From: a virus
Lineage: Duplodnaviria > Caudoviricetes
Length of the DNA: 64,000 nt
Virus record (IMG/VR): IMGVR_UViG_3300037189_030782
Direction: 5' to 3' (one strand)
Shown in pieces: positions 15,659 through 33,028 of this stretch; position 1 is the stretch's first letter; every line of letters starts with the position of its first letter. The notes beneath the pieces are model-generated. The model saw nothing but the letters and a program-made list of their open reading frames with translations. It was not told where the DNA came from and did no database searches. A program made the position numbers and the translations under genes.

Positions 15659-15955
15659 ATGGATTATCGCACGCTCGATTACTTTGCTGATCATATATCT
15701 GGACATTTGCCTGATAAATGTCGATTGAAGGTTAATTATATATTAGATGTTGGCGATGACCACAATTTATTCATGTATAATGATGGCGCTATTATTGAGA
15801 GTATAAATGATATGTTAATTGTCAAGAATAGGGTCGGCCCCCCGAAGTGCTTTGCGATGGCCGACCCTGACTGTTTTAAGCTGGTGGCTGAGGCGCTAAT
15901 AAGCGCTGGGGACCAAATCGTTAGCCATCGAGACTACTCGGATGGTGTTGATTGA
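15659..15955 (+). CDS. Hypothetical protein
   Basis: 98-aa ORF in the operon. Confidence 0.5.
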   Translation: MDYRTLDYFADHISGHLPDKCRLKVNYILDVGDDHNLFMYNDGAIIESINDMLIVKNRVGPPKCFAMADPDCFKLVAEALISAGDQIVSHRDYSDGVD

Positions 15956-17161
15956 GTCTTTGATCGATTTGCGGTTTCGGTTTAGAAATCGTGCGATGTG
16001 GCCGTTGCAAGGGCGACCTTCACCGAACGTTTCTGCGTATGCGTCGTACACAGGTCCTGTGCAAGCAAGAATATCAAACACATCTCTATCTTGGTCATTT
16101 AGGGCCAAGCGTACCTTTAGGCAACCTTCTTTGATTGCGAGCTCTTCAGTGTGATCGTCGTACCTCATACCGTGTCCTCCTGGTATATTATCAAGTGATG
16201 ATTTTCCGTCCTGCCGCGCACTGCTTGTCGAGTCATCGTTGACTGAGACGAAGGTAGTTTTACGTTCCTTGATTGAGAAACCGACACTATAAGATCCATT
16301 GAAGTAGACCTTATCGTTAGTTAATTTCATAACTATGCCATATGCACTCGCCTCCTTTTGTAAGCTTAGTAAATCTTCTGTTAGTTCAACGGGACTAAGT
16401 AAGCCATCGACTACCACGATTAGGTCTTTGGACTCGTTGTAGAAGATGCTTATTTTTGCTGAATGCTTTGCGAATAAGCCTAAAAATTTAGGCTGGAAAT
16501 GGTCGAAAGCATCTACGTTTGTGAATACTTGCTTTATGGTCTTGGCGGGTTTGTTCTCACGCAAGATCTGTTTTTCGTAGTTCTGAATATAGCTGCTTAC
16601 GAATTTGATTAGTTGCTGTTCGTCATTAAGAATAGCTTCAGCCTGTGCATGTTTTGGTCCTTCAGCTAAGTGTTCTATTATTGGATAACATTGGGGTGTT
16701 GGTTCACCAGCTACAATGTAGTCTGGTAAGTCATCGATATGAATGATTTTTGAGTCATCTTCTATTAAAATTTTGGTGTGCTTGCAGTTTGGACATGGCA
16801 CGTAGGTCGTGCGGTCAAATAATTTAGATATCCCTTCTTTGTTAGTATATTCTGATGACTTGCAGTGACTGCAGTGATAACTATATTGTTTGTGGCAGAG
16901 AAGTTGGACGACGGCGTTCCAGATAGGGATTTGGAATTCAGCCAATGCTGCTTCGATGTCATCTTTGTAGTCTGCTCCGATTGTGTTTCGTAGGGCTCTT
17001 ACGAATGATGATTTAGATGACTGCAGTTTTTCGTGTTTAAATAATCGTGCTACCAATGCGTCGATATTTGCTTTGTCGGTCGGCGACAGGTTCTTCATCG
17101 TGATGTTAGCAATCGAACCTCTTACATAAATCTTCGGCATCTGGCGCACAATGGTCATCAT
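15896..17161 (-). CDS. Divergent sigma-factor-like protein with a Zn-ribbon insertion
   Basis: Region-2-like DIEAALAEFQIPIWNAV; HCSHC and CPNC pairs; region-4-like LNDQDRDVFDIL...GHIARFLNRNRKSIKDSINTIR; AAGGAGG SD. Confidence 0.5.
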   Translation of the reverse strand: MMTIVRQMPKIYVRGSIANITMKNLSPTDKANIDALVARLFKHEKLQSSKSSFVRALRNTIGADYKDDIEAALAEFQIPIWNAVVQLLCHKQYSYHCSHCKSSEYTNKEGISKLFDRTTYVPCPNCKHTKILIEDDSKIIHIDDLPDYIVAGEPTPQCYPIIEHLAEGPKHAQAEAILNDEQQLIKFVSSYIQNYEKQILRENKPAKTIKQVFTNVDAFDHFQPKFLGLFAKHSAKISIFYNESKDLIVVVDGLLSPVELTEDLLSLQKEASAYGIVMKLTNDKVYFNGSYSVGFSIKERKTTFVSVNDDSTSSARQDGKSSLDNIPGGHGMRYDDHTEELAIKEGCLKVRLALNDQDRDVFDILACTGPVYDAYAETFGEGRPCNGHIARFLNRNRKSIKDSINTIRVVSMANDLVPSAY

Positions 17162-17208
17162 ATCCTCCTTGAAAATCTGTGTATTGAAATGTGAAAGGGG
17201 ATCGAAAT

Positions 17209-17946
17209 ATGGCGTATTGCAACTCTGATCTGTTGGAACAGAAATGGTTTACTTGGCTGTTAGCTAGCGCAACACCAGAGCTAGAACCTTTTCGCAATCA
17301 TGGTTTATTGTTTTCAAAACCAGACATCCACGTCCATAAGGATGGAGTGGCATTGTATAAGAACGGGAAGCCATTATTCGATCCATCAAGCCCATTGAAG
17401 CATCATTGCCTACCATTTGAGACTCCGGTATATTTCAGCACATGTGACGGCGAGATTGTTGATTTTTTCATTATACAACACTCAGTCCGGTTTGTCAATA
17501 CAGCTTCGCTAAAAAGCCTGTCAGAGGCATTCCCTATTATAGGTAAGCCATCTGAGAAAATCGTGGCAGAGTTAGAGCAAGAGGAATATATTCAAGAGAT
17601 TCCTGAACAGGAAGCTTGGCATGCTCTACTGTTCGACATAAAACAGATGTGTAGTGGCATAGCGCAAAAATTCAAACCTAATGGCGAGGAAGAGCATTTA
17701 GAATTAATACATGAAGCATTATTGCAGGTTTTACAGAAGCTTAAGAATAAAAAATTGAAATATATGCCTGGTAAGGCACCGGTATTTAACTTATTGACAA
17801 CTACCATATATAGGTGCCTTTACAGTGTGATGAATAAGCGTAAACATATAAAGGAAGGGCAATATAAGCTAGGTGCAGCTATACAAAATGGTAGAGCTCC
17901 CGCAAATTGTCGCAGTTTTAGAATAAATAAGCAAGGGCTAGATTGA
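17209..17946 (+). CDS. T4 gp55-like late-transcription sigma factor
   Basis: AYCNSDLL start; LIHEALLQVLQKL...YMPGK.PVFNLLTTTIYRCLYSVMNKRK echoes the gp55 core; near gp46/47. Confidence 0.6.
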   Translation: MAYCNSDLLEQKWFTWLLASATPELEPFRNHGLLFSKPDIHVHKDGVALYKNGKPLFDPSSPLKHHCLPFETPVYFSTCDGEIVDFFIIQHSVRFVNTASLKSLSEAFPIIGKPSEKIVAELEQEEYIQEIPEQEAWHALLFDIKQMCSGIAQKFKPNGEEEHLELIHEALLQVLQKLKNKKLKYMPGKAPVFNLLTTTIYRCLYSVMNKRKHIKEGQYKLGAAIQNGRAPANCRSFRINKQGLD

Positions 17947-18980
17947 TGATTAATCCAAGACGGCAAAAGGTAAATATTCAGCTTCCTAAAGCCGTTCGAG
18001 TGTACGTGGAGCAAAATAAAAATCAACAGAATGTTGCTGCGCCCAAGCCGCCTGTAATGAGGCAGCAACAGAATCCAAATTACGTCGCACCATCTGTGGT
18101 CAGATTAGATCCTAGTACTAGACAGCCAGTATCACAAATCATAGAACAAGCGAATGAGTCAAGAGTAAATCTTTATAATGCCAGCAGGGCTGGCGTCAAG
18201 TCGCCGTCTCAGCCGTCGTCGCAGCAAGTGACGAGACGGCGAGGGCCGGTAATCCAATATTCGAGTGACAAAGATTTACCAGTTCAGTCTGCTTTCATAA
18301 ATCGGTTGAAAGACGTGGGGGTAGGGCGTGCTTTGATGATAATTGGGAACGGACCGAGCATTGCTACCGTAGATCTGGCAGAGCTCAAGGATAAAAAACG
18401 GATCGATATTTGCAGTATTAATAATCCAGACACAAGAGTATGGCCAACTCAATACTGGTGCTTCTTTGATAGTAGCCAATATCGAAGGCATAAAGCGCTA
18501 TTGGCTGACTACAAAGGAATCATTGTCACAGGTAGCAGTATTGCGAATTGTCACGCAAATCATCTGAGGCTTAGGAATTTGGGACAACAAACGTTCAGCA
18601 CTGATCTACTAAGAGGATTAGCCATTGGTCGTAGCAGTGTCTTCGCAGCTTTGCAAGTGGCTGAATGGATGAAGTATGATGAGATCTTTGTGTTCGGTGT
18701 AGACATGGATGCTAAAGGTATCGATGGTAAATTGCATTTTTACGGGACTAATCCTGACGTGCCGCCTCATGTGCGTGTTGAGCGATTTAAGGCTGAGGCT
18801 GATTGTTTCATGCAAGCGGTTAATAATATCGCTGAGGAGCGGAGGCAGAACATTCATTTTTGTAGTGAATACAACACATGGCCGTTCGTTAAGCATTTCA
18901 GCAACCACTCTGCGCAAGAAGGACTAGAGTTGGCTATCGCTCGTTGGGGCGCTGATGTTAGCCCATCAGTTGAATTCTAG
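17943..18980 (+). CDS. Maf/DUF115 (MptE-like) fold protein with a Q/P-rich N-terminal extension; putative nonulosonate-type transferase
   Basis: IIGNGPSI, ICSINN, GRSSVFAALQVAEWMKYDEIFVFGVDM. Confidence 0.7.
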   Translation: MMINPRRQKVNIQLPKAVRVYVEQNKNQQNVAAPKPPVMRQQQNPNYVAPSVVRLDPSTRQPVSQIIEQANESRVNLYNASRAGVKSPSQPSSQQVTRRRGPVIQYSSDKDLPVQSAFINRLKDVGVGRALMIIGNGPSIATVDLAELKDKKRIDICSINNPDTRVWPTQYWCFFDSSQYRRHKALLADYKGIIVTGSSIANCHANHLRLRNLGQQTFSTDLLRGLAIGRSSVFAALQVAEWMKYDEIFVFGVDMDAKGIDGKLHFYGTNPDVPPHVRVERFKAEADCFMQAVNNIAEERRQNIHFCSEYNTWPFVKHFSNHSAQEGLELAIARWGADVSPSVEF

Positions 18981-19016: not shown

Positions 19017-19709
19017 ATGAATGGCAATCCGATCAGTAAGTTAGAACTCGACTGTTTTCAAATTAGCGAAATGTTAGAGTGCATGGAGTTCGCTGCGAAG
19101 CATAATTTGCCTGCTGTGGTAGTCCACCAGGGACTGAGTTCGGACGCATTGATCATAAGAAATAAGGTCAGAGGGAAGTTCAAAGTGGTAGTGCCAATAG
19201 ATTGGCCAAAAGGAGATCATTTCGGTAATCTAAAATTCCGCGGACTTACTATTGATAGTTTAGAGGGCGATGCGTTCGAGATCGTAATGAGTTCAGGTAA
19301 ATCAATAATGGATTTAAAAAATGAAGCTAGAGTGTGCACTGACTTCATTAGGACGTATCTCGGTCCGACGCAGGAGATCAGGTTCGTAGTTCCATCTACC
19401 AAGACTGATGTGGCATCTATTGCGGAGTTGGCCGGGTTGTTTCATGGTATTCGCAATCCTGCTTATGTGCGGTTTGGATTTGCTAGCAAAGCGCCTGCCA
19501 ATAAGGTCAGTCGATCATATAATATAGAGATCAGGACCAAATTGTTCGAAGCAGTCGGCGTTCCTATTAAAATGTGTGGTAATATTCAAACGATACAAGA
19601 CATTGATTTAATAGGCGCTGCTCGATATGGTGTCTCTTTGGCTTTTGCTAAAGTCATTATAAATGAGTATGCACTGGCTCAGGAAGAACGGCATAGTACC
19701 CCAGTGTGA
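19017..19709 (+). CDS. DeoC-like (deoxyribose-phosphate aldolase fold) TIM barrel, degenerate
   Basis: PIDWPKG, GDAFEIVM and IKMCGNIQTIQDIDLIGAARYGVS align to DeoC; the KTSTG Schiff-base Lys appears as RFGF. Confidence 0.6.
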   Translation: MNGNPISKLELDCFQISEMLECMEFAAKHNLPAVVVHQGLSSDALIIRNKVRGKFKVVVPIDWPKGDHFGNLKFRGLTIDSLEGDAFEIVMSSGKSIMDLKNEARVCTDFIRTYLGPTQEIRFVVPSTKTDVASIAELAGLFHGIRNPAYVRFGFASKAPANKVSRSYNIEIRTKLFEAVGVPIKMCGNIQTIQDIDLIGAARYGVSLAFAKVIINEYALAQEERHSTPV

Positions 19710-19765
19710 TCCTAGTATTGGTAGCACCGGGATATGTCTACTTTTTGTTACAGCAGGAGTTATAA

Positions 19766-20887
19766 ATGCAAAAGGGAAAATTCAATGTGGTAACAGACGG
19801 CAACTACGGTAGCACAGGTAAAGGTCATGTCAGCAGCGCCTTAGTGTACAGGTACAGACCTGAGATACTTACCAACACGAATATGGCGAATGCTGGCCAT
19901 ACAGCTGTATCACCAGATGGGAGCAAATTTGTCAGCAAGGCTTTACCAGCGCCAACTATAATGCGTAAATGGTTAGATAAATATGATCCGACCGTTATTA
20001 TGGGTGCTACTAGCGCATTTAAGCTTGACACGTTGCAGGCGGAATTAGATCAGGTTGGTCACGACATTAAGTTAATGATTCATGATCGTGCTGCTGTGAT
20101 CACGAAAGAGCATCAGGAGCGAGAAGCGTGTGGGTCAGATAGCACTAAACATGTGGCAAGCACAATGCAGGGTTGCGCCACCTGTCTATCGGACAAAATA
20201 TTGCGCAAGCAGGACGTCAAACTCGCTAGAGATTATGCTGATATAGCACCATTGATGGCAAGCAAACAATGTAGTGGAATGTCGCTTCCAGAATATCTTA
20301 CTACTATGATGCGTGGTGGGATGACAATTCTCCATGAGGGTAGCCAAGGGTTCGGATTAGATATTAATCATGGTAGTCATTATCCCCAATGTACTTCACG
20401 TAGCACCACCGCAATACAAAATCTTAGTGACCTTGGATTGCCACATCAGTGTATGGGTGATGTGTACTTAGTGCTTAGATGTCATCCTATTCGAGTTGGT
20501 AACGTAATCGAGGACGGTAAGGTCATAGGCTACAGCGGAGATTGTTACCCCGATCAACACGAGTTAACAATAGAGCAAATAGCAGCTGAATGTGGCGCTC
20601 CGCCTGATGTCATTCGTGGTATCGAAATTACCACGGTCACTAAGCGTCAGCGCCGGATGTTCTCATTTAGCGCGCAGCAGGCCAAACAGGCGGCTCTAAG
20701 CAATGGAGCTACAAAATTGGTACTGACATTCGTTAATTATATCGATTGGTCATGTTACGGGGTGAAGGAGTACAATAAGTTACCTCAAAAAGTGCAGTCG
20801 TTCGTGCACAAGATCGAAGATGAATTGAGGTTACCAGTAGTAATGGTAGGGACTGGGCCAGCTTATGATGACGTTTGCATCATCTAA
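19766..20887 (+). CDS. purZ: PurZ-type adenylosuccinate synthetase homologue (N6-succino-2-amino-dAMP synthase)
   Basis: GNYGSTGKG (Ser at PurA Asp13), NMANAGHT, EGSQG..LD, YPQCTSR, RCHPIRVG, YPDQHELT, TTVTKRQRRMFSFS, TFVNY. Confidence 0.8.
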   Translation: MQKGKFNVVTDGNYGSTGKGHVSSALVYRYRPEILTNTNMANAGHTAVSPDGSKFVSKALPAPTIMRKWLDKYDPTVIMGATSAFKLDTLQAELDQVGHDIKLMIHDRAAVITKEHQEREACGSDSTKHVASTMQGCATCLSDKILRKQDVKLARDYADIAPLMASKQCSGMSLPEYLTTMMRGGMTILHEGSQGFGLDINHGSHYPQCTSRSTTAIQNLSDLGLPHQCMGDVYLVLRCHPIRVGNVIEDGKVIGYSGDCYPDQHELTIEQIAAECGAPPDVIRGIEITTVTKRQRRMFSFSAQQAKQAALSNGATKLVLTFVNYIDWSCYGVKEYNKLPQKVQSFVHKIEDELRLPVVMVGTGPAYDDVCII

Positions 20888-21569
20888 TAAATTCGCATAT
20901 TTAGATGAGATTAGCGATGATCTTGACGAGGCCTTGGCTCACACCAAGGCCTTGTCCTTTTCACGCGTGTGGTATCGGAAACATAAGTATAAGTCATTTA
21001 CTCAGTTGTCTGACGATGAGCACAAGCATATTAAAGGAAAATTGATAGCATCGAACTTAGCATTGGTCGGATTTAATATCACGGTTGAGGACTTAACTAA
21101 TACAAAGCTAACTGGATTATTAGGTTATTATAAAGTCAAGTGGCTGAGCTTACAATTCGACAGTAGAAAGCACTACGATGATCATTATGATAGAGCGATG
21201 GAGTTCGCTAGTTCTTTAATACCATTAGGTGTGACTGTGGTGTGTCCGTATTATTGGTGGTTACTTAATCATTCAAAACAATTCAGGTCTTATAAGTTAG
21301 AAGCTATGTTGATCTTGAATAATATCAATATTAGTATTAGGAAGTCTTTGCCTATGAAAAGTGTCGCCATAATAGATACTGTTGATGTGTTACCTGGCCA
21401 TGGAACACAATGGCTAGGTGACGGTAAATTGGATTTTGCCGGATGCATTTCAGATATCGGCGACGGCGTGTTGGTGGGGTGTGCTCATTCTATGGTAGTG
21501 CGGCAAGGTAAGACTAAGGTAGATAACATGCATGTAGTATTAAGCAGGTTGGAGCGATATTATGATTAA
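20865..21569 (+). CDS. Xylose-isomerase/AP-endonuclease-2-like TIM barrel, degenerate
   Basis: N-terminal LDEISDDLDEAL...VWYR and C-terminal LGDGKLDF; metal ligands poorly conserved. Confidence 0.55.
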   Translation: MMTFASSNKFAYLDEISDDLDEALAHTKALSFSRVWYRKHKYKSFTQLSDDEHKHIKGKLIASNLALVGFNITVEDLTNTKLTGLLGYYKVKWLSLQFDSRKHYDDHYDRAMEFASSLIPLGVTVVCPYYWWLLNHSKQFRSYKLEAMLILNNINISIRKSLPMKSVAIIDTVDVLPGHGTQWLGDGKLDFAGCISDIGDGVLVGCAHSMVVRQGKTKVDNMHVVLSRLERYYD

Positions 21570-21774
21570 CATGAATGAAGCAGTATTGAAAATAAAAGCG
21601 GCAGGATCAAAGGCAGTTAGGATCGTTCCGGGCCCAGGACAATCGGTTGATGGTGGTCTATATCAAATAGAAATTTTAGAGTCAGCTGGATGGTCGACAG
21701 TAATTCAAGGTGTGACTAAACAGGTAGCGGAGTCTATGGTAAACCAGGCAATAAATCGTGTGATTCTAGGATGA
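21562..21774 (+). CDS. Hypothetical protein
   Basis: 70 aa, overlaps both neighbours. Confidence 0.6.
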   Translation: MINMNEAVLKIKAAGSKAVRIVPGPGQSVDGGLYQIEILESAGWSTVIQGVTKQVAESMVNQAINRVILG

Positions 21775-22205
21775 AAAAGAAAATCGTATCAGTTATGGAG
21801 CTGGCAAAGTACAAAATCGGAGATCTTGCATATCATGTAATGTTACAGCCAACTGGAAAAATTCCTAGACTAGCGTCAGCAGACAAATGGATGCGAGAAG
21901 TCCACCCCAAAGTCCTATATTCTAGTGGGCCTTTCAAGCATCTATGGAAATACACAAGCGTACTACCTCGTGTCAGCTGGAATGATTTTGAAGATTTAAT
22001 AATGGTTATAACCGCAAGCGTAGCAGTACAACCGTTTTGTGTGAAGGGCATTGAAAGATGTAAGCATACTGGTGAATTCATTTATACAAATGAAGACGAC
22101 GTCGAAATACCTGAATCTTGCTTGTTCGACACAAAGCAAGCTGCATCGTTAGAACGGTCTAGGATATTGAAGCTATTCAAGAAATGGGTCGAAGTGCAAA
22201 CGTAG
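21771..22205 (+). CDS. Hypothetical protein (KYKIGD SH3/KOW-like start)
   Basis: 144 aa, ATGA overlap. Confidence 0.6.
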   Translation: MKKKIVSVMELAKYKIGDLAYHVMLQPTGKIPRLASADKWMREVHPKVLYSSGPFKHLWKYTSVLPRVSWNDFEDLIMVITASVAVQPFCVKGIERCKHTGEFIYTNEDDVEIPESCLFDTKQAASLERSRILKLFKKWVEVQT

Positions 22206-22309: not shown

Positions 22310-25300
22310 ATGGAAATAAATCTTAATGGTAGTGGTATCGGGATCAATAACTATTCCGAGGTCCTTGTAGTCGATATCGAAACACGCAACACTTTCTGTG
22401 AGAATAATTCATATAATCAGGATACCTTGTTAGCGTATGCGAATCAATTAGCTCATAAAAACATCACGACAGTGTGTAAGCCGATCCAGACAAATGCTGT
22501 CAGAATTACACAAGATAAGGTCAATAAAACAAGCAGGAGTACATTTCCGCGGATAACAGATAATGCGTTGCTTGGCAATTGCATCGATGATCAAGCCTTA
22601 GCGTGTCAGAATGAATCGACGCCGCTTGACGTACATTTTATCATAGATCTGAGCACACCGGCTTTACGGCAAGTTGGAGATCTTGCCACATATTTAGATC
22701 AATTGATCGTAAGCATGAAAGAGAGATATGGTGGAGGATTAAGGGCGAGCTACACTTTCTTAACCCCAATTGATAATGTTATTGATACGTCGACTCAATG
22801 GACCATACAGCATTTGGCAGGACCCAGTATTATCACCACAGGTGACTCCGCCGGGATCACATATCATCTTCCGGTAGCCTGTGCAACAGTGAGTTCATTG
22901 AAAGCATCATATCATAATGGCAACCTTGGAGTAGGAGCAACATTGACGGCTAGTGAGAATCGCACCTTGATGAGGATAGACGGCTATCAGCCACTGCTTA
23001 ATGATCGTATATTAGTCAAAGATCAATTGCTTCAGCAAGCTAATGGGATTTATGTCGTAACTGATTTAGGTAGCGGCAGTAAACCGTATGTTCTCACCAG
23101 GTCTAACGATTTCGACGGCAGTTCTGCTGCAGTAACACCTGGGTGGGCGACGACAGTTAGCAAAGGATTGACCAACAGTGGCTTGTCTTTCGTGTCAACT
23201 GGCGTGGGGACTTTAACTTCCGGAACTCATGCAATCTTGTTTGGTGTCGACGCAGTGGTGTTTACTAATAGTAGTCTGGTCAAGTATTCGTGTGTTACAC
23301 CGTCAATTGTCGATTATCTAAACGTGAACAATTCGAAGCTGCTGCTGACTACGAGCAATAGTCGGATCTGTCCGTATGATATAGTTATAAACAATTTAAT
23401 AAGGCAATCGTCATTCTCTTACGGTACGGTAATAACAGATAGCGTGGTAGTGCGGGCTAGTGACATCAAGACGTGTCGATTTGTTAGAAGATCACTGGCG
23501 TATTTGCAGTTATTCGTCATCTCTAATCGCAGCTTTACACTGTCTGACAACAGCGTCATAAATTTTGAAGGCTCTTTGGATAATGCGGTAAATTGCAGCG
23601 TTAACATTAGTCCGATTGTCACCAATGGACAGTTGACATCAGACTTTAGTAAAGCTTTTAATGTTTATCGCAATCATGGCGTTGAACCGTACACTGTGTT
23701 CAATGCAGCTGAGTTATTCAGCATAATCCATGGTCAAATCAAAAAGTACTACGATGGGCTATTCATTAGTGTCGCCAATAATGTCGATAAACAATACCTA
23801 TATCAGACTGGCCAATATGTTAAATCGGTCAAAGGCAATAATGTGGCTAATTTGGCCATTTCCTCTGCGGTCGATTTTAGTGCCTATGATACGGTTAATG
23901 ACTTTTTAGCGGTCGTATCAGGCAATCAACTGCAAGTGATAAAGTTGGCTGAGTATAGGCTGGTCGCTAAGTACACGTATGATTACGAGATAGTAGGGTT
24001 AGCGTTCGATAAGTATCTGCAACTTAGTTTGTTAACCCAAGTCGGCACTACGTTATCGGTGTTATCGATCCAAGTGTCAGATTTATCAGCAGTTACAGAA
24101 AAATATGTTTTAGACATTTCTTCATATGGCGTCATACCGGTAGGCAGCATAAGGTTTCATAGTCCGAAAGCGGTCGATGTAGATTTCTTGACCTTTGCTG
24201 TCAATGGTGATGGTGGATCTAATCTACGATATACTATAGCGTTGCGGCAACTTGATGGCAACCAGGCCACAGAAGTTCTACCGCATGTTGGCTCATTTGT
24301 CGGGTTCGATTCATTTACCAATCGGTTTTACATTTTAGATGCGCTCACTAAAAAGATATTGAGATTTGATGGTCTTGCCGAATATTTCTTTGATGGATTG
24401 AGTAACGCCACGCAGGTTTATGATGTTGCTTTAATCGAGGTGACGCTCGATGAAGATAGTGGCCATTTGATTGGGTTCAATGGTACCAGTTGGCTCGACA
24501 TAGATCTCGCTGGCGCTAGTGTTGCACTTGGTATCACTCAGGAAGTCGATAACTTTATCGGCATTAAACTTAACTTGTCGTGCCCTGAAGATTATTCACT
24601 TTTGTCGGTTCATAACGTGCCATTTGGTGGCATTAGCAACTGGTCGAACCGCAATAAATCTTTCGATAATATTCTGGTGTCCAATGGTGGATCTACATAC
24701 AGGCAATATCTAGATTTGATAGCTGGTAGCACCTACACGCTTACGATTGATGCGGTTATTTTAGATCAAGTAAGCAGTCAGGGCAATTTTTGTGTTACGA
24801 TAGGATTCACTGGTGTCTCATATCAATATCCGATACATCGGACTGGCCCAGTTACTTTATTGTTTGAAGCTGTGGGTGGTCCGTGTCTGATTGAGCTTTT
24901 TGTCAGTCCTTTTTATGATAGCAAGGAGATAGCGGTTAATAATCTTATTGTGTGCGAGACCAAAGAAATAGTGTGTGGACTGGTCGAGAACATAGAAATG
25001 ACACTAAAGTGGGGCACTCCTGAATCTGTCGATATACCTCGTTTACCATTGAACATATTTAACGCATTTTTGAAATTAATTTATCGGAATCCCACAACAC
25101 CATCAGAGTTTAAGAATACATTTCTACTGCCCACCTGCGAAGGGCATACGTGCATTGGCGATCCACCAAAAGTCGTTAGTGTCACATGCAATTATGGCGA
25201 TACTGTTGACTTCTGGAAGCAACAGGGATTAGGCACGGTGGCGCAAGTCAGCATCTTGTCGCAGAATCTGACGAAGAAGTTTATGGAAGGAGTGACTGAA

Positions 25301-28300
25301 AATAAAACAAGCAGTGTGGAAGGATTCGCCAATTGGCTTTGGAGCATTCCGCAAAGTAAGAGCGCAGTGATTAATGACGAATTAACCGCTTATTTTCCCA
25401 GTTACGAAGATCCAGTTAACATTCTGGATACCATAGAAGTCTACATCTTAGCGAATCAGGTTTATCCGAGTGGCGATTTTCCTCCTAAGCATTGTGACAA
25501 TTACCCAGCCATGTTTGAGGATCCCGGCGTCAATCTGTCGGTAGAGATCAGCTATGATGACCAAAGGAAAGTTAACCACACTTTCTCTAAGAGCTTTAAT
25601 CGCAATGACATCTTTACGACTTATGGGGACTTCACACGGAATCTTCCAAGTCAATGGGACACGTTAACCAGCTTAGGTAATGGAGTGCGTGGGAACAAAG
25701 CGGCGTGGCACGTGGCTCAATTTATTTTGGATACACCAGATGGTAAGCAGCCAGATGGCGCAGCTACGTTAAATCAGTGCTCTAAGCCATTAAAAGTAGT
25801 CCTCAGTGGCACTGGTTCTATGTATGTGTTTCCCGGCGCTAATAAACCAGCGCCTACGGTAGTAGCGTCTGGCAATGCCTATAATGTGAGACCATGTCAA
25901 CCGCAAATGGGATTTAAAATGGTCAGCGCTGGCAGAGCTGATTATAGTGTGGTGTCATTCAGTCAGCCTAATGCAACTGGCGGGACTTACAAGGTGACAT
26001 TCCAAAAAAACGGCGTAAATTCTCCGTTCGTGTTTGAATTAGCAAATGGTGAAAAGCCAGAGATGCTCGTTAAGCTTTTAGCGTCTAGGGCTGGTTTTGT
26101 GACAGCGGCAAGCGATATTGGTCTAAGTGGAACAGGCACAAAGAGCGACCCGTTCGTGCTGGCATTCGTCGGCAGGTCTCAAGGTATAGGTTATAGCATT
26201 ACGAGCACCGACGGTAGTGGCCTGAGTGGTGCAGGATCATTTGACACTGAAGTGATAGCTTCAGGTGGCGCACAACGTGATATCTTCACTGTAAAGTTTA
26301 AAAATAGCTTAGAGATACAAAATTCGCCGATTAACACACCTACTTTCAATGAATATTATGCTACATTATACCTTGTATATGGCAACAGCACTTATTCATC
26401 TCCAGATGCTACTGCCACTTACGTGAGCAGTAGCGTAGGTACTACAGCATCAGCTATATTGAATTTCATTAACACTATGGTCGATTCAAGTGGCAAATCT
26501 TTCGGAACCACTTACGGCGTTGATTTTGTGAGTGTCAGCCCAGGTATAGATCCAACTTATGGTCCGTTTACTATAGGATTTAGCGCTCCCGCCAAGGATG
26601 AGAAAGTACAACTGTACTTTAAAACTATCCTTACAAACGGTACAAATCGCAACACGATCGATAGTAGGAATAACCTATCGTATGACCCAGTGGACCTAGT
26701 GCATAAATCACAATTTGGTAGCAAGACTGCTGCATCGCAAAAGCTTATGGTCAACGCTAGTGGCGGATCATTCATATTAGGGCTTCCGGCTAACACTGGC
26801 ACCGTCACACCGCGTGGCATTTATCTGCTAGTGTCTTACGAATTCCCTAATACATCGACGTATACAGCCAGTGCACCTTTTAACATAATTGTATCTGGGA
26901 TTGATAAAGATGCCAATGGTCAAGATAATCAGTATCAGGTGGCAATCACGCCTGACCGATGTAACACTACTAGTGCTGGTTGCGATGCGTTTTTAGCTTG
27001 CGACCCGAATGTCAGCAAAAACATTCAATATTTAAAGTGGTCGGTACGTGGAATTAATGGTGCTTGCGCTAATAACGTTTATACCTCGTTCAGTCAAAGT
27101 CTCGATGTGCCAATGAGTGATTGGATCAGTAAAATAGTCAATTCGTTTGATTTAACATTAACTACGGTTTATCCATTTGCACCTAATGTGAATTTGTCTG
27201 ATGAGCCGATACCTAGTTCTGTACCTAGCTGCGATATTAATTGCATTGTCAGGGTATTTGCTGACAATGGCACCACAAATACTAACACGTTCACGCAGGT
27301 TTTTAGTCAGGTTATTAAGGCGACTGCAGGTAAAGAATTTACTAAGAAATTTAAGGTGACAGTGCCCGAAGCGGGATATGTCTACACACGACCTATCCAG
27401 GCTAATGCTGCAGCTTCCGATGTTTTAGCAGCTGTTAAGGATCTCAAGGACACTGCGCCTTCTGATGCTGTGGTTGAATTAGATACGGTTGAGAAGGATG
27501 GCAGTAATTTTAGCTATATCTTAAAATGGAATGCCGGTTATGCAATTGAGCCCGTGATTGTCGACACTGCCGGTTTGAGCGGTGCGACTGTGCAATATAC
27601 TAACACAGCTTCAGGCTCTTATGAGATATGCAAGCAGGTTTTAACGTTACAGAACGCAACGGATGGTTATTTTAGCGTTAACGTGGCTTATGGGAGTAGG
27701 AATACTACAACAGACGCTATAAGTATACCATTCCGAGATGTTGATTTGCAATATGCGCTGCTTAATACCAGAGGCGTATTTCCTGTCGATTCTCTCACTG
27801 TTACACAAGTGCAAACAGTAGATCCTAAGCTCGTGAAGATCTACAACATTGAATTCGCGCCTTTCATGGGACCAGTGCCGTTGTTAGAATCAATCTCTGC
27901 TGGTACGATCAGGTGCTATCCTGTTGCGATACCGCCGTTGCCGCCGCCACCGTTTAAGCTGCCTACATATAGCTGTGTAGAGGGTCCGGAGGATCTGTTA
28001 TTCTCTTTTTGTGGCATCACTGGAGACGGACCAGAGTCTATTGCAGCCGTTGGCTATTCGGCCAAGCAGCTGTCAAGTGTGAGCACCAGTATTAAAGCCA
28101 AGGCGGAATTAGTGAATCCTGAGCAGAGACTGACATTACGGCAGATGATTTTAAAGACCAATAGTGGTAACCCTAATGACTTCTTGGGTTACCAATATGA
28201 TAATTTAAGTGGATCAGTCAGGAGGGTTGGCTTAGAAACGGTGCTTGAGACCCAAACTAGTTATATGATTGTCAAAAAGGTCGTGTACGGTGTGTCTTAT

Positions 28301-28483
28301 AACTTTAAGTATAGCGATGGAGTTTATGAAGATGCTATGATTGACAAAATGTCATATAATCTCTATGTTAGAGTAAGGGCTCAGACCAATCTTCTGCCCG
28401 GTAGGATTCAACCCAAGCATTACACACCTAAGGCCGCTTCTTACTTGCTGGCCCCTGCGTCAAGCTTAAATTGTTTAACTTGA
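22310..28483 (+). CDS. 2057-aa virion protein (tail fibre/baseplate-associated, multi-domain)
   Basis: DRILVKDQ...ANGIYVV...LTRSNDFD tail-fibre motif; vWA-like VHFIIDLS; repeated NAxxGxF modules; T/S/G/N-rich. Confidence 0.75.
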   Translation: MEINLNGSGIGINNYSEVLVVDIETRNTFCENNSYNQDTLLAYANQLAHKNITTVCKPIQTNAVRITQDKVNKTSRSTFPRITDNALLGNCIDDQALACQNESTPLDVHFIIDLSTPALRQVGDLATYLDQLIVSMKERYGGGLRASYTFLTPIDNVIDTSTQWTIQHLAGPSIITTGDSAGITYHLPVACATVSSLKASYHNGNLGVGATLTASENRTLMRIDGYQPLLNDRILVKDQLLQQANGIYVVTDLGSGSKPYVLTRSNDFDGSSAAVTPGWATTVSKGLTNSGLSFVSTGVGTLTSGTHAILFGVDAVVFTNSSLVKYSCVTPSIVDYLNVNNSKLLLTTSNSRICPYDIVINNLIRQSSFSYGTVITDSVVVRASDIKTCRFVRRSLAYLQLFVISNRSFTLSDNSVINFEGSLDNAVNCSVNISPIVTNGQLTSDFSKAFNVYRNHGVEPYTVFNAAELFSIIHGQIKKYYDGLFISVANNVDKQYLYQTGQYVKSVKGNNVANLAISSAVDFSAYDTVNDFLAVVSGNQLQVIKLAEYRLVAKYTYDYEIVGLAFDKYLQLSLLTQVGTTLSVLSIQVSDLSAVTEKYVLDISSYGVIPVGSIRFHSPKAVDVDFLTFAVNGDGGSNLRYTIALRQLDGNQATEVLPHVGSFVGFDSFTNRFYILDALTKKILRFDGLAEYFFDGLSNATQVYDVALIEVTLDEDSGHLIGFNGTSWLDIDLAGASVALGITQEVDNFIGIKLNLSCPEDYSLLSVHNVPFGGISNWSNRNKSFDNILVSNGGSTYRQYLDLIAGSTYTLTIDAVILDQVSSQGNFCVTIGFTGVSYQYPIHRTGPVTLLFEAVGGPCLIELFVSPFYDSKEIAVNNLIVCETKEIVCGLVENIEMTLKWGTPESVDIPRLPLNIFNAFLKLIYRNPTTPSEFKNTFLLPTCEGHTCIGDPPKVVSVTCNYGDTVDFWKQQGLGTVAQVSILSQNLTKKFMEGVTENKTSSVEGFANWLWSIPQSKSAVINDELTAYFPSYEDPVNILDTIEVYILANQVYPSGDFPPKHCDNYPAMFEDPGVNLSVEISYDDQRKVNHTFSKSFNRNDIFTTYGDFTRNLPSQWDTLTSLGNGVRGNKAAWHVAQFILDTPDGKQPDGAATLNQCSKPLKVVLSGTGSMYVFPGANKPAPTVVASGNAYNVRPCQPQMGFKMVSAGRADYSVVSFSQPNATGGTYKVTFQKNGVNSPFVFELANGEKPEMLVKLLASRAGFVTAASDIGLSGTGTKSDPFVLAFVGRSQGIGYSITSTDGSGLSGAGSFDTEVIASGGAQRDIFTVKFKNSLEIQNSPINTPTFNEYYATLYLVYGNSTYSSPDATATYVSSSVGTTASAILNFINTMVDSSGKSFGTTYGVDFVSVSPGIDPTYGPFTIGFSAPAKDEKVQLYFKTILTNGTNRNTIDSRNNLSYDPVDLVHKSQFGSKTAASQKLMVNASGGSFILGLPANTGTVTPRGIYLLVSYEFPNTSTYTASAPFNIIVSGIDKDANGQDNQYQVAITPDRCNTTSAGCDAFLACDPNVSKNIQYLKWSVRGINGACANNVYTSFSQSLDVPMSDWISKIVNSFDLTLTTVYPFAPNVNLSDEPIPSSVPSCDINCIVRVFADNGTTNTNTFTQVFSQVIKATAGKEFTKKFKVTVPEAGYVYTRPIQANAAASDVLAAVKDLKDTAPSDAVVELDTVEKDGSNFSYILKWNAGYAIEPVIVDTAGLSGATVQYTNTASGSYEICKQVLTLQNATDGYFSVNVAYGSRNTTTDAISIPFRDVDLQYALLNTRGVFPVDSLTVTQVQTVDPKLVKIYNIEFAPFMGPVPLLESISAGTIRCYPVAIPPLPPPPFKLPTYSCVEGPEDLLFSFCGITGDGPESIAAVGYSAKQLSSVSTSIKAKAELVNPEQRLTLRQMILKTNSGNPNDFLGYQYDNLSGSVRRVGLETVLETQTSYMIVKKVVYGVSYNFKYSDGVYEDAMIDKMSYNLYVRVRAQTNLLPGRIQPKHYTPKAASYLLAPASSLNCLT

Positions 28484-29163: not shown

Positions 29164-30117
29164 ATGATTAAAATATGCGTGATTGGTCACAGCGGATTTC
29201 TCGGGCGTGCTGTGATAGACCAATTCAATAAATGTGACATCGATGTTATAGGCGTAAGCAAAAGCCACGGAGTGGACGCAACTGATGAAAGACAATTAGA
29301 AGATGTGATAACGTCTGACGGTATTACGACTGTTGTAAATTTAGCTGCGGTGTGCGGTGGAATAGGATTAAATCAGATACGACCAGCAGAGTTATGGTCT
29401 ACCACCAATAATATAAACGGAGCTGTGCTAAAAGCTTGCAGCAAGACAAATGTCAGATTATTGATGATTGGTACGGCGTGCTCTTATGGCAGTCTTACGC
29501 CGACGCCATTTAGGGAAGATGACTTGATGAAGTATGGCTATCCTGAGGCAACGAATGCTGCTTATGGCGTAAGCAAGCTAAATGGATTATTCGGATCGAT
29601 GGCCTATCGGCAGCAGTATGACTGTAAGATTACGTATGCAATACCAGCGAATTTGTATGGTCCGTTCGACAATTTTGATCTTGGAACTAGCCATGTTATT
29701 CCAGCGTTAATAAGAAAAATCGATGAAGCTAAAACAGCTGGCACACCATTAGTGGTATGGGGCACTGGTATAGCTTCCAGAGAGTTCCTATATGTGAGAG
29801 ACTGTGCGAAGGCCATAACGCAATTGTCCATAATGCCATATGAGATGGTAGGGTTAGGACCATATAATATCGGTAATGGGCAGGAAGTAGCAATTGCAGA
29901 TTTAGTGCAAGCATTATGCAATGCAATGGACTTTAAAGGCGAAGTGATTTGGGATAGCAGCAAACCTGACGGACAATTAAGGCGTTGTTTAGATGTTTCA
30001 AAGTTACATAAATTAGGCTTTGCCGCTGAGACGGCTCTTGCTGAGGGGTTATTGAATACGATCAAGTATTACCAACGGATGGTGAAAAATGGGAGTGGAA
30101 GTACGAGTAACAATTAG
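29164..30117 (+). CDS. fcl: GDP-L-fucose synthase
   Basis: GFLG, AAVCGGIGLN, YGVSK, PANLYGPFDNFDLGTSHVIPALIRK, VWGTG.ASREFLYV, WDSSKPDG. Confidence 0.92.
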   Translation: MIKICVIGHSGFLGRAVIDQFNKCDIDVIGVSKSHGVDATDERQLEDVITSDGITTVVNLAAVCGGIGLNQIRPAELWSTTNNINGAVLKACSKTNVRLLMIGTACSYGSLTPTPFREDDLMKYGYPEATNAAYGVSKLNGLFGSMAYRQQYDCKITYAIPANLYGPFDNFDLGTSHVIPALIRKIDEAKTAGTPLVVWGTGIASREFLYVRDCAKAITQLSIMPYEMVGLGPYNIGNGQEVAIADLVQALCNAMDFKGEVIWDSSKPDGQLRRCLDVSKLHKLGFAAETALAEGLLNTIKYYQRMVKNGSGSTSNN

Positions 30118-30487
30118 CGTCGGAGAATTATTAGACAAGTTGAGCATTTTAAGAATCAAAAAGCACTTCTTCAAAGACGACGATAAATTACACAACATTA
30201 AACAAGAATATAATTTACTAGCACAGACGTGGCAAGGTATGCATTCACATATCAAGCCAGTTATGCTTACTGAATTATATAATCTATATGATCGTTTATG
30301 CACTGTCAATAAAGCTATCTGGGATATGCAAAATAATATCAGAGAGCACGAAAGAGAGCAATTGTTTGATGATGAATTTATACAGTTGGCTCGGCAACTG
30401 TATATCAACGATGACTTAAGATCATCGATAAAGAAACAAATAAATATTAAAATAGGTAGTGCCATAGTAGAAGAAAAATCATTCTAA
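30089..30487 (+). CDS. DUF6165-like protein
   Basis: ISVGELLDKLSILRIK...VNKAIWD...FIQLAR..YI.DD.R..IK..IN...S.IVEEKS. Confidence 0.75.
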   Translation: MGVEVRVTISVGELLDKLSILRIKKHFFKDDDKLHNIKQEYNLLAQTWQGMHSHIKPVMLTELYNLYDRLCTVNKAIWDMQNNIREHEREQLFDDEFIQLARQLYINDDLRSSIKKQINIKIGSAIVEEKSF

Positions 30488-30496
30488 AGGCCAAAA

Positions 30497-31102
30497 ATGA
30501 CCACACCAAAAAGAAGCGCAAGCGCAATAGGTAAAAGCAACGTGCGGATGGGCAAAACGCATGAAAGAAGGATGGCACACCTATTAACTGAGTTTACCGG
30601 TCAGGAATTTAGAAGGCGGCGCGTTACTGGCCGAGACCAAGGTACTATAGACAGGGAGAGCACGTCGGATGTAATATCATCCAGAGGTTTGTGTGCGTTT
30701 AGCATCGAAGGTAAAGCTGGCAAAGGATATAGTCTTGATGCACTTATGTCTACACCAGACACTGCATTATTCACCAAATGGTGGTTCCAGGCCACATATG
30801 ATGCTAACCTTTTGACAGCGGCAGTCAAGCGTCCCATCTACCCGATGGTCATGTTCAAACCGATTCCAGCGTGGGATTGGGTGGCTGTGTCGAAAAAAGG
30901 TTTTTCTGATAAGCTGATACACAAAGGTGTTTTTCCAGTGCTTTTATTTGAAGGATTTAACAATCGCCAATATACTATGTCTGTATCACATTCAGATCGT
31001 ACTAAGCAGATTATCGAACAGGCTTTGGATGACGTTGTATTCTGTCGATGGAAATCGTTTGCTGAAAATATAGTATCAGATTCACTGTTCTATGAGAGGT
31101 GA
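30497..31102 (+). CDS. Putative Holliday junction resolvase (PD-(D/E)XK)
   Basis: GKTHERRMA...SDVI...FSIEGK. Confidence 0.7.
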   Translation: MTTPKRSASAIGKSNVRMGKTHERRMAHLLTEFTGQEFRRRRVTGRDQGTIDRESTSDVISSRGLCAFSIEGKAGKGYSLDALMSTPDTALFTKWWFQATYDANLLTAAVKRPIYPMVMFKPIPAWDWVAVSKKGFSDKLIHKGVFPVLLFEGFNNRQYTMSVSHSDRTKQIIEQALDDVVFCRWKSFAENIVSDSLFYER

Positions 31103-31105
31103 TTT

Positions 31106-31327
31106 ATGGCATGTGGAAGTTGCGGCGGTGGAGCACCTAGACAAATTAAAGTGGTTAACGATACCAACCCAAGCCAGCCATTGAACATACGTCCATTGCC
31201 GGTGCAAAGGCAGATTAATAATCGGATAAATAGATGTGGAACATGTAGTAGTTTAACCATGTTAGTCAGCATTAATGGAAAGGAACGCACCCAGTGTGTG
31301 AATCCAGCTTGTCGATTGGTGCAATAG
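31106..31327 (+). CDS. Small Zn-ribbon-like protein
   Basis: MACGSCGG...CGTC...CVNPAC. Confidence 0.65.
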   Translation: MACGSCGGGAPRQIKVVNDTNPSQPLNIRPLPVQRQINNRINRCGTCSSLTMLVSINGKERTQCVNPACRLVQ

Positions 31328-31710
31328 CTCAGCTGTTAGTAGCGGCTGTCGCAGTAGAGGCGGCAGTAGAAGTGTTCGTAGATTCAGAAATATTCTCTGA
31401 AGTCAGGTCATTTATCAAGGACTTGTGCTACCCACAAGTTCCTCGTGCTAACGCAAGGTTAGCATACGTTTATTACAAGTTAAATTATTTTATTAATTGC
31501 GGCTATTGTATGTCGGTGTGGGTAGCAGCAGTTGTCGCTCTTGGTTTCGTCTGCTGCATAACAGGCATCATGGTTGTTGATTGGTTTATCACTACATTGG
31601 TGCTGCATCGTTTATCTAATCTCTTCCACGTATTGTTTATGTTAGTGAAGCATGGGCGAGTGCACACGTTGAGCGGTGACTTTAACCATATAATTGAGAA
31701 CAAAAAATGA
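31294..31710 (+). CDS. DUF1360-like membrane protein
   Basis: Hydrophobic helices with CGYCMSVWVA; start uncertain (perhaps TTG 31309). Confidence 0.65.
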   Translation: MCESSLSIGAIAQLLVAAVAVEAAVEVFVDSEIFSEVRSFIKDLCYPQVPRANARLAYVYYKLNYFINCGYCMSVWVAAVVALGFVCCITGIMVVDWFITTLVLHRLSNLFHVLFMLVKHGRVHTLSGDFNHIIENKK

Positions 31711-32156
31711 ACCAAGAAGAATTAGCAGCGCGGAACGCTAAGAGATTCGATTCGAGGATTTTTACTGACAAGAAGCCTAAATCGATAGACGATGTAAAGG
31801 CTCTATTGAGGGAATTCGACCCCAAGCTGAGTGCTGATCAATCAGTTACATTGAATGCAGAGTTTGCAGAAGAATCAGGTCCTACCGATATCAAAGCTAT
31901 TGCGACGGTTAAAAGTAAGCGCAGCATGCTTTTATTCGGTTTTGAAAAAATCAGATATATTTCGAGTATTGAAAGGGATGAAATATTGGAAGAGTACATC
32001 GTCCCTTCGCCAGCGGTTAATTTTGGCTTACATTGGCTGGATCAGTATATTGCAAGATGGCTTGGCGCAACACGCGAAGGTTTATTCATTGTTTGGAATT
32101 TGAACTCCGGTAAGTTTAAGTACGACATTTTTACACACACATTGACCCGAGTATAA
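31707..32156 (+). CDS. Hypothetical protein
   Basis: 149 aa, ATGA overlap. Confidence 0.6.
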   Translation: MNQEELAARNAKRFDSRIFTDKKPKSIDDVKALLREFDPKLSADQSVTLNAEFAEESGPTDIKAIATVKSKRSMLLFGFEKIRYISSIERDEILEEYIVPSPAVNFGLHWLDQYIARWLGATREGLFIVWNLNSGKFKYDIFTHTLTRV

Positions 32157-32157
32157 T

Positions 32158-32472
32158 ATGCAACAGGCCGCACTGCCACATTTGGCTCATTATTCGGATT
32201 TGCGTCGGTACATACCCGCTTATGGCGACTATTTAATCTGGTCAAAATGGTTCACTACGTGGCACGGGTTTATAGTAGATTTCGATGCTAAGACTCTCGA
32301 AGTGAGCGTGATTTTCGCTGGTCTACCAATTTTGTTGGTAACTATGTCAGAACTAGAACAGAAAAAAGAAACTCGAAAAATTCCATTAGGAGAATTAAAC
32401 AATGCGACCAAGGGTAAATACGCAGTTCTCCGCCACGACACAGCCAACAACGCAAACATCTGGTACGTTTAA
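32158..32472 (+). CDS. Hypothetical protein
   Basis: 104 aa, in the operon. Confidence 0.6.
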   Translation: MQQAALPHLAHYSDLRRYIPAYGDYLIWSKWFTTWHGFIVDFDAKTLEVSVIFAGLPILLVTMSELEQKKETRKIPLGELNNATKGKYAVLRHDTANNANIWYV

Positions 32473-33028
32473 GCTTGCTAAGCTGTTATCGCACCCAAAG
32501 CCGCTTCCATTTAATTATTTAGACACACTGAAAAACGTATTATGCTATGTCATCAGGAAATATGCAGATGATGGTCTATCGGTTCTTATAAGCAGAAAAA
32601 ATGAAGATGTTGCGGTTTTATTCGGTGATTGGAATGGGAACTTATGTGATATACGGGAGGATGGTCCTGCTCCGGCGGCAGCTAAGCTGTTTATGGAGCA
32701 GCACTTGAATGATGTCTATGCTTTAATGAAGTACATTAAAATTGACATGTTACAAATGTTCATTGACACTAGCGCAGGATTCAGACTTGTTGATATACAA
32801 TTAAGCCTCAATAAATACACTGGCCCAGGCATGCTGCGTGATGTGTTTAATCCTATAATAGACACGCAGGAGGTGTTGGTCATTGAACCTTTGGCTGATC
32901 GAGCCTTGGAGGCGATTAGGCACGGCACCGGAACATATGAAGGCAATCTGATCATTAAGCCCAGCAAATTTAGGCTATATGAGGACGGTGGTGCTTATTT
33001 TCCACATTATGTGAGTGTAACACGATAA
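32402..33028 (+). CDS. Hypothetical protein (true start probably downstream)
   Basis: 208-aa ORF; TAATG overlap with the next gene. Confidence 0.55.
   Translation: MRPRVNTQFSATTQPTTQTSGTFKLAKLLSHPKPLPFNYLDTLKNVLCYVIRKYADDGLSVLISRKNEDVAVLFGDWNGNLCDIREDGPAPAAAKLFMEQHLNDVYALMKYIKIDMLQMFIDTSAGFRLVDIQLSLNKYTGPGMLRDVFNPIIDTQEVLVIEPLADRALEAIRHGTGTYEGNLIIKPSKFRLYEDGGAYFPHYVSVTR

Follow-up and report, generated by a model that had tools for sequence, protein, structure and literature searches.

A PurZ Gene with Two Unnamed Barrel Families at a Putative Deoxynucleotide-Pool Locus of a Huge Freshwater Phage

The window considered here is a stretch of 64,000 nucleotides from IMG/VR record IMGVR_UViG_3300037189_030782, 64 kb of the genome of a very large uncultured freshwater phage (Caudoviricetes). 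At positions 19017–22205 it carries a run of five genes encoding a DERA-like barrel protein, PurZ, a shortened xylose-isomerase-like barrel protein, and two small proteins. The PurZ gene is a true one, as judged from its sequence, and the two barrels represent families without a database name that recur near PurZ in related huge phages. The locus is tentatively read as a compact form of a deoxynucleotide-pool module of an uncultured clade of huge freshwater phages, a reading that stops a little short of being probable. We infer the biochemical functions of both barrels from their sequences and structure models.

Descriptions of Z-DNA synthesis have, to our knowledge, been limited to small sipho- and podoviruses and to two accessory sets, DatZ/MazZ and DutZ/DmtZ. 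In the present case PurZ occurs in phages of 230–408 kb, with no DatZ or MazZ found near the gene or in two complete or nearly complete relatives, and it is joined to the two unnamed families. The Z-pathway literature that was searched makes no mention of an aldolase-fold or xylose-isomerase-fold partner, nor of jumbo phages. What is new is that two accessory families, both unnamed, go with a Z-pathway cluster; the system is not categorically new.

The Locus and Its PurZ

All five open reading frames (ORFs) were confirmed, in position and on the plus strand, and the co-oriented and tightly packed or overlapping arrangement given in the preliminary description holds along the whole run. A gap of 56 nucleotides separates the DERA-like gene from PurZ; PurZ and the isomerase-like gene overlap by 23 nucleotides, the isomerase-like gene and the gene for a 70-residue protein by 8, and the latter and the gene for a 144-residue protein by 4. 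Near-identical and related contigs extend to 242–254 kb, and more distant relatives to 408 kb.

The ORF at 19766–20887 (plus strand) encodes 373 residues and is assigned as the 2-aminoadenylosuccinate (succino-dZMP) synthetase PurZ. It matches PF00709 (2.9e-33) and phrog_1211 (3e-56), and its best relatives of solved structure are the PurZ enzymes of phage phiVC8 (6fm1, 3e-39) and of S-2L (7odx, 3.5e-37). The P-loop reads GSTGKG, and Ser16 stands at the position of Asp13 in PurA, aligned to S14 of phiVC8 PurZ. It is the change of Asp13 to serine that defines PurZ, and serine is found in 100% of 147 phage PurZ sequences (PMC12884076); Ser16 is likewise invariant across 13 orthologues from related contigs. 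In the phiVC8 enzyme, F12 and T262 contact dGMP at its 2-amino group, and F295 and Y298 the adenine of ATP (bioRxiv 10.1101/2025.10.22.683976). Y14 is a conservative replacement for F12, and the segments TTVTK and F-V-N-Y (for F295/Y298) are aligned. Identity amounts to 31–35% with PurZ from phages of Gram-negative hosts and from S-2L, but to only 24–29% with the Arthrobacter/Gordonia/Microbacterium group, the PurZ0 of the literature. On the strength of these residues and matches, the ORF is a true PurZ.

The PurZ genes of several relatives (contigs designated L006, L031, and L009) appear to have been invaded by selfish elements. At L006:11802-16006 a 51-residue N-terminal piece of PurZ lies 2.4 kb upstream of a PurZ ORF of 557 residues, with a LAGLIDADG gene on the opposite strand between them. 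The PurZ ORF at L031:4123-7761 spans 1212 residues, possibly through an intein, and a LAGLIDADG gene directly follows PurZ at L009:5430-6266. In one contig a reverse transcriptase gene separates the DERA-like gene from PurZ. A distant adenylosuccinate-synthetase-like match, 24% identical to the PurZ of the window, is present in a 735-kb uncultured phage record (GenBank LR756501.1, 345374-346513).

A DERA Fold with Arginine at the Schiff-Base Position

The gene that opens the run (19017–19709, plus strand) encodes a TIM barrel of 230 residues with no sequence match in Pfam, PHROG, or the PDB; PDB searches with either barrel of the locus, as a single protein or as a five-sequence profile, returned nothing significant. 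Its assignment comes from structure models. The AlphaFold model (pLDDT 74.7) gives a Foldseek list whose top 42 entries are all DERA (6d33, E 2.7e-8, TM 0.70). VIA-align, which is independent of Foldseek, places six DERAs first (Z 15.3–18.1, root-mean-square deviation 3.0–3.3 over 192–210 residues), followed by other barrel families at Z 15.0 and lower, and the separate model of this protein in the ESM Atlas matches a DeoC cluster at TM 0.83. As modeled, the protein folds as a DERA/DeoC barrel.

The preliminary description had proposed that arginine replaces the Schiff-base lysine, with the second active-site lysine retained, and the alignments agree. In a weak alignment (E 0.08) of the family profile with Geobacillus DERA (8qps), R152, in the family motif IRTD, falls on the lysine of VKTSTGF; K185, in IKxSGN, on the lysine of VKASGG; and RYGVS, in the family RFxVS, on RIGTS. 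Local alignment by hhalign to E. coli DeoC, at a score that is not significant, gives the same register, with IRT opposite IKT at K167 and IKxSGN opposite FKPAGG at K201; global hhalign of the family with the same protein did not succeed in aligning them. The Schiff-base lysine of strand β6 (K167 in E. coli) is represented by R152, and the β7 lysine equivalent to K201 is kept as K185, together with an S/C-G-N loop that corresponds to the phosphate-binding glycine loop. By strand position, R122 on β5 takes the place of K137 and E88 that of D102.

Among 141 aligned members of the family, the sole invariant residue is K73 (141/141), which follows β3; R152 is conserved in 135, R122 in 132, and K185 in 131, and 130 members have arginine at both the β5 and β6 lysine positions. 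Charged residues conserved at the C-terminal face of the barrel are E10, D62, K73, D85, E88, E103, and K185. Nonsynonymous divergence (dN) from two members of the window lineage is 0.10–0.13, similar to that of PurZ, with synonymous divergence (dS) saturated. Judged from these rates, the DERA-like protein is under purifying selection and is not decaying. The preliminary description had called both barrels degenerate. That is apt for the isomerase-like protein, which has decayed, but not for the DERA-like protein, which belongs to a well-conserved family with invariant residues of its own.

The family is phage-only, and it is large: among 1.84 billion representatives searched with a profile there were at least 204 sequence clusters at E≤1e-3 and 183 at E≤1e-10. 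Neither the window protein nor any of 119 relatives scores against PF01791 at E≤1. A tblastn search of 50,697 GenBank phage records with three DERA-like members and one isomerase-like member gave no match, nor did a search of IMG/VR with query P0150. The resemblance to DERA/DeoC (PF01791) thus comprises the fold (Z 15–18), an 'FPxG'-like motif at β2/β3, the β7 lysine, the phosphate loops, and a length of ~220–230 residues. The differences are the arginines in place of K167 and K137, the lack of any PF01791 score (0/119), the family's own invariant lysine after β3, and its restriction to phages in a context of deoxynucleotide genes.

A Shortened Isomerase-Like Barrel That Follows PurZ

The gene immediately downstream of PurZ (20865–21569, plus strand) encodes 234 residues without a Pfam match. 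Its relationship to the xylose-isomerase-like barrels of the AP_endonuc_2 superfamily emerges through cousins and through the fold. A distant relative has in this position a gene with a score of 39.5 bits against PF01261, and five cousins are annotated with that family; hhalign of the window-lineage profile against the cousin profile gives a probability of 95% (E 2.6e-8, 207 columns). The structure model is of moderate quality (pLDDT 69.3) and matches only xylose-isomerase-like barrels (Foldseek 3p6l, 2.2e-6; VIA Z 15.2). Both fold assignments of the preliminary description, DeoC-like and xylose-isomerase-like, are therefore upheld by structure comparison.

Xylose-isomerase-like barrels have four metal ligands (E/D/H-or-D/E) at their C-terminal face. 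The cousins share the glutamate of P-x-x-E, the motifs YDPAQ and ID(V/L)(R/H)D, and EP, which together form an E/D/D/E ligand pattern. The window lineage has replaced the glutamate of P-x-x-E, the aspartate of YDPAQ, and the glutamate of EP and keeps the aspartate pair of IDTVD, so that one of the four metal-ligand positions survives; the early impression that most ligands are missing was correct. The window lineage also has two deletions, and the window copy is ~40 residues shorter than its PF01261 relatives. Its dN of 0.29–0.35, against 0.09–0.10 for PurZ, is about three times that of its neighbors, yet dN/dS is ~0.15 where computable, which indicates that purifying selection still operates. 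On its sequence, the window copy is probably non-catalytic or repurposed. The PF01261 barrels include sugar-phosphate isomerases and epimerases, IolE, and keto-sugar lyases, with endonuclease IV in the same superfamily. The window protein shares their fold, and its cousins score with the family and keep the four ligands; the window copy differs in its length, in the three lost positions, in falling below the Pfam threshold, and in belonging to a family found only directly after PurZ.

This linkage is strict. The isomerase-like gene lies directly after PurZ in all 15 of the loci that carry it and whose DNA was read, and these include all eight IMG/VR contigs found with the isomerase-like query alone. 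Two further contigs, available as gene tables only, have a gene that fits by its position after PurZ. The gene is absent from L021 and L022, which lack PurZ, and from L009 and L025, which have it. The 70-residue protein (21562–21774, plus strand), which has no Pfam or PHROG match and is 89–91% identical between lineage members, comes without exception after the isomerase-like gene in relatives that bear PurZ. The 144-residue protein (21771–22205, plus strand), assigned to the locus by co-occurrence, belongs to no clear family, and an ESM Atlas feature search with it gave sub-threshold leads only; its gene is the last of the cassette. The isomerase-like, 70-residue, and 144-residue genes behave as a PurZ cassette, found only directly after PurZ. 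Because the isomerase-like gene follows PurZ in every relative examined that carries it and is missing where PurZ is missing, its product is likely to be an accessory of the PurZ pathway. Prediction of a complex between PurZ and the isomerase-like protein, from alignments of 13 rows, scored 0.00 and speaks neither for nor against binding.

Gene Neighborhoods and the NDT Gene

Loci around family members were read in metagenome assemblies and in IMG/VR, and their ORFs were classified by iterated profile searches (jackhmmer). This comparison of gene neighborhoods, which the preliminary description had suggested, finds the module conserved: more than 15 diverged contigs of huge phages show the gene order again, and an arrangement that comes back in so many of them is not chance. 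Identity to the DERA-like protein of the window, where measured, is 36–43% in 11 IMG/VR contigs (L012–L020, L031, and L032; 96–408 kb) and the Logan contig L006 (79 kb).

The usual order in the clade begins with a 421-residue gene on the minus strand and continues with a 251-residue gene, an MptE-like gene, an NDT-like gene, and the DERA-like gene. Zinc-ribbon and coiled-coil genes come next, then PurZ and the isomerase-like, 70-residue, and 144-residue genes, and usually a giant ORF. In L016 what is kept of this order begins with the DERA-like gene. In the window, the 421-residue protein is encoded at 15896–17161 (minus strand) and the 251-residue protein at 17191–17946 (plus strand). Neither has an assigned family, and both keep their order in every relative, whether PurZ is present or not, which places them in the genomic backbone and outside the PurZ cassette. 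The MptE/Maf-like protein (17943–18980, plus strand; 345 residues with a Gln-rich N-terminus) has a weak match to PF01973 (17.9 bits) and one to phrog_4603, 'sialyltransferase'. In most clade relatives, those without PurZ included, its gene is the immediate upstream neighbor of the NDT/DERA-like genes; it is regarded as context for the locus only. The giant ORF of the window (22310–28483, plus strand), downstream of the cassette here as in relatives, encodes 2057 residues with no Pfam match and is 67–73% identical within the window lineage.

The closest companion of the DERA-like gene is the NDT-like gene. Sixteen loci have it upstream of the DERA-like gene according to jackhmmer (L006, L008, L009, L012–15, L017–20, L022, L024, L025, L031, and L032), and one gene-table contig according to Pfam. 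It overlaps the start of the DERA-like gene by 4–29 nucleotides in 13 of the 16 loci and lies within 30 nucleotides of it in another two; L019 has a gap of 356 nucleotides. The NDT-like matches to Pfam (PF05014/PF15891) are weak and mostly below threshold, and two NDT subtypes with differing contexts are represented among the loci. The exceptions without an NDT gene are the window lineage, L016, and L021. Characterized members of the NDT family (DmtZ, Rcl/DNPH1) split a deoxynucleoside monophosphate (dNMP) into its base and deoxyribose 5-phosphate, and deoxyribose 5-phosphate is the substrate of DERA.

The preliminary description had tied the DERA-like barrel to PurZ, but the gene also occurs beside dCTP or dCMP deaminase genes where PurZ is missing. 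In L021 and L022 the backbone and the DERA-like gene are kept, a dCTP deaminase gene follows, and there is no PurZ within 8 kb. L024 has NDT, DERA-like, and dCMP deaminase genes in succession; L025 has NDT, DERA-like, a 113-residue gene, PurZ, and Toprim; and L009 has NDT, DERA-like, RNase T, PurZ, a homing endonuclease, ThyA, and DHFR. It follows from these contexts that the DERA-like gene travels with NDT and deoxynucleotide enzymes generally and not with PurZ alone. The module of the window lineage is streamlined, having lost the NDT, zinc-ribbon, and coiled-coil genes as well as the ligands of the isomerase-like protein. By their sequences, PurZ and the DERA-fold protein are the only two products of the module that look fully functional in this lineage.

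Relation to Known Z Pathways

The PurZ of the window resembles that of the phiVC8 and S-2L clusters (purZ, datZ, mazZ/DUF550, and dpoZ) in its serine at the PurA Asp13 position, in its dGMP and ATP pocket residues, and in its identity of about one third. In those clusters DatZ is an HD-type dATPase, MazZ a MazG/DUF550-type dGTP/dATP pyrophosphatase, and DpoZ a Z-selective family A polymerase. The surroundings are unlike those clusters. There is no HD/DatZ, MazG, or PF04447 (MazZ/DUF550-type) gene near PurZ or in the two complete or nearly complete relatives; the clade contigs measure 230–408 kb, as compared with genomes of 40–70 kb; and PurZ in the window is flanked by the two barrel families. 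Neither HD nor MazG genes were detected in the window or its near-copy, and no HD, HD_3, MazG, PF04447, or PurB-type genes were detected in the two relatives (408 and 354 kb; CheckV completeness 100% and 98%), with the qualification that the PF04447 negative is weak because the control for that family gave no signal anywhere.

A second accessory set is known from the phages with PurZ0, in which the Dut-like enzyme DutZ converts dATP and dGTP to dNMPs and the NDT-family enzyme DmtZ splits dAMP into adenine and deoxyribose 5-phosphate (PMC12884076). DmtZ can also transfer the sugar phosphate onto the base Z; it works with a Dut-like dATPase, and DutZ and DmtZ are fused in phage Wayne (PMC12884076). 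The relatives of the window phage are like Wayne and Ghobes in joining PurZ with genes of the NDT and dUTPase families, and the same logic, dATP to dAMP to adenine and deoxyribose 5-phosphate, may apply, as far as the genes can tell. They are unlike them in that the PurZ is nearer to the classical enzymes than to PurZ0, that an extra DERA-fold gene is coupled to NDT, and that NDT is absent from the window. The clade thus appears, from its gene content, to join a classical-type PurZ with an accessory set of the DutZ/DmtZ kind and with two extra families.

Each of the two complete or nearly complete relatives has two dUTPase-family genes, and for that reason one of each pair could be a DutZ-like dATP/dGTP pyrophosphatase. 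In the window the sole candidate deoxynucleoside triphosphate (dNTP) pyrophosphatase seen is a dUTPase-family protein encoded at 48739–49287 (plus strand; PF00692, 62 bits), 28 kb downstream of the PurZ locus. It is not an orthologue of the dCTP deaminases of L021 and L022, whose genes come after the DERA-like gene. The suggestion that the barrels are pool-editing replacements for DatZ and MazZ fares unevenly in this light. DatZ- and MazZ-type genes are indeed absent from the near-copy and the two relatives, and the DERA-like gene does keep company with deoxynucleotide genes; the NDT (DmtZ-like) and dUTPase-family genes are nonetheless the more parsimonious stand-ins, and the DERA-like protein is better described as a partner of the NDT gene than as a DatZ or MazZ analogue itself.

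Proposed Roles

In the preferred reading, the compact module would work as follows. PurZ, judged by its conserved residues, would catalyze the reaction of dGMP with aspartate and a nucleoside triphosphate to give N6-succino-2-amino-dAMP (succino-dZMP), the committed step toward dZTP, and PurB of the host, or some other analogue, would complete dZMP. Meanwhile, in the relatives, Dut-like and NDT-like enzymes would destroy dATP and dAMP. The DERA-fold protein would bind the deoxyribose 5-phosphate released by NDT and remove it, whether a relocated lysine (K73 or K185) serves to cleave it or it is converted in another way, and its removal would make the destruction of the unwanted canonical dNMP irreversible. 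The fold, the retained phosphate loops, and the tight coupling to a family whose product is the DERA substrate are the grounds for this assignment; handling of deoxyribose 5-phosphate from dNMP breakdown is the most likely role that sequence and model suggest for the DERA-like protein. Since the window lineage has no NDT at the locus, its deoxyribose 5-phosphate would need another source, either a different part of the genome or the host.

The isomerase-like protein would be a PurZ-linked accessory, a metal-dependent enzyme of the xylose-isomerase-like kind that is represented in the window lineage by a decayed copy. The superfamily contains metal-dependent eliminases, and no PurB homologue was found in the two complete or nearly complete relatives; a role for the ligand-bearing cousins on an intermediate of the PurZ pathway is therefore plausible, though this is speculation. 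The PurZ-linked isomerase-like family is a candidate for a missing phage-encoded step after PurZ. The DERA-fold family has a wider bearing. Its occurrence with dCTP and dCMP deaminases as well ties it to dNTP-pool editing for several kinds of DNA modification. Its reaction could reveal a general step in the disposal of canonical nucleotides by phages and would illustrate how the scaffold of a class I aldolase operates without the classical lysine.

A number of observations weigh against this assignment of roles. An NDT-like gene is not detectable in the 64-kb window, nor in L003 or L004, so that the proposed source of deoxyribose 5-phosphate is missing locally; DatZ, MazZ, or NDT could lie elsewhere in the genome of the window phage, beyond the 64 kb. 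Because the canonical Schiff-base lysine is an arginine, classical DERA chemistry is not to be expected. As for a relocated lysine, four of the 141 members have no lysine on either β6 or β7, and the six that have the β6 lysine and then none on β7 all form one clade, from which it follows that the apparent swap was a single event. A rule of exactly one lysine on β6 or β7, as the mark of a migrated nucleophile, was considered and set aside for these same two reasons, and is kept as a hint only. Finally, much of the synteny lies within a single phage clade and takes in unrelated genes (SbcCD, helicase, and the 421- and 251-residue genes), and conserved order alone is for this reason weak evidence of shared function.

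Alternative Explanations

The last point leads to an explanation in terms of backbone synteny only, with the barrels at work in other pathways, such as the chemistry of glycans or nonulosonic acids, together with the MptE/Maf-like transferase, a DegT aminotransferase, and a GDP-fucose/glycosyltransferase island. In every clade member the SbcCD, helicase, 421-residue, and 251-residue genes do stand in one and the same order. Most of these members have an MptE/Maf-like gene ahead of the NDT/DERA-like pair, in one contig with a DegT aminotransferase gene in between, an arrangement that would fit sugar chemistry too; sugar-nucleotide and glycosyltransferase genes are abundant in the window, and xylose-isomerase-like barrels are typically sugar enzymes. 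We consider this explanation unlikely. Outside the usual order (L009, L024, and L025), the DERA-like gene keeps NDT together with PurZ, dCMP deaminase, ThyA, or DHFR; the isomerase-like gene comes and goes with PurZ; and the NDT and DERA-like genes overlap by 4–29 nucleotides in 13 of the 16 loci.

It has also to be considered that the DERA-like protein might be a non-catalytic or non-aldolase nucleotide-binding subunit, for instance a regulator that binds dNMP or deoxyribose 5-phosphate, or a channel for NDT or PurZ. The two arginines at the β5 and β6 lysine positions, present together in nearly the whole family, would then hold a phosphate or carboxylate in place of Schiff-base chemistry, and the phosphate-loop motifs are retained. 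The overlap of its start with the NDT gene suggests translational coupling, and the DERA-like gene is kept in the window lineage without NDT. The conserved set of acidic and basic residues at the C-terminal face of the barrel is more like that of an enzyme, and a purely binding role seems to us improbable, to about the degree that the synteny explanation does.

A more ambitious extension of the preferred reading sees in these phages an undescribed toolkit for Z-DNA. NDT and the DERA-fold protein, with K73 or K185 as its relocated lysine, would destroy dNMP and its deoxyribose 5-phosphate, and the isomerase-like protein would be a metal-dependent, non-homologous substitute for PurB that frees fumarate from succino-dZMP, an activity that the window lineage would have lost, leaving it to depend on host PurB. 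That all of this should hold together is quite unlikely. It is very improbable, in turn, that the barrels carry the succinyl intermediate of PurZ on to a purine other than Z, a proposal of the preliminary description for which nothing was found in support: the strict linkage of the isomerase-like family to PurZ, the lyases and eliminases among its superfamily, and the lack of a PurB homologue in the complete or nearly complete relatives could accommodate it, but all known PurZ phages reach Z by way of host PurB, the cassette has no evident transferase or other tailoring enzyme, the isomerase-like copy in the window has lost its ligands, and the DERA-like gene is not specific to PurZ.

Other Genes of the Window

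A search of GenBank phages for DNA nearly identical to the locus gave no match, and a scan of the locus for promoter and terminator consensus sequences returned counts equal to those of shuffled sequence and hence nothing informative. The replication module of the window comprises RecA, DnaB, a gp32-like protein, a 5'-3' exonuclease, and a PolA-like ORF of 389 residues (43589–44758, plus strand) whose weak C-terminal match to family A polymerases (30.6 bits) lies below the cut-off; this ORF is a tentative lead for a polymerase of the DpoZ kind.

A sugar island extends over 29164–35921 (plus strand) and contains a protein with two GT2 domains, a GT1-like glycosyltransferase, and an epimerase-family gene; the last, at 29164–30117 (plus strand), belongs to the NAD-dependent epimerase/GDP-mannose dehydratase family. 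Elsewhere in the window are genes for a NADAR domain protein (3045–3527, minus strand), a MobA-like nucleotidyltransferase (5287–6009, plus strand), and a radical SAM/SPASM enzyme (50203–51357, minus strand).

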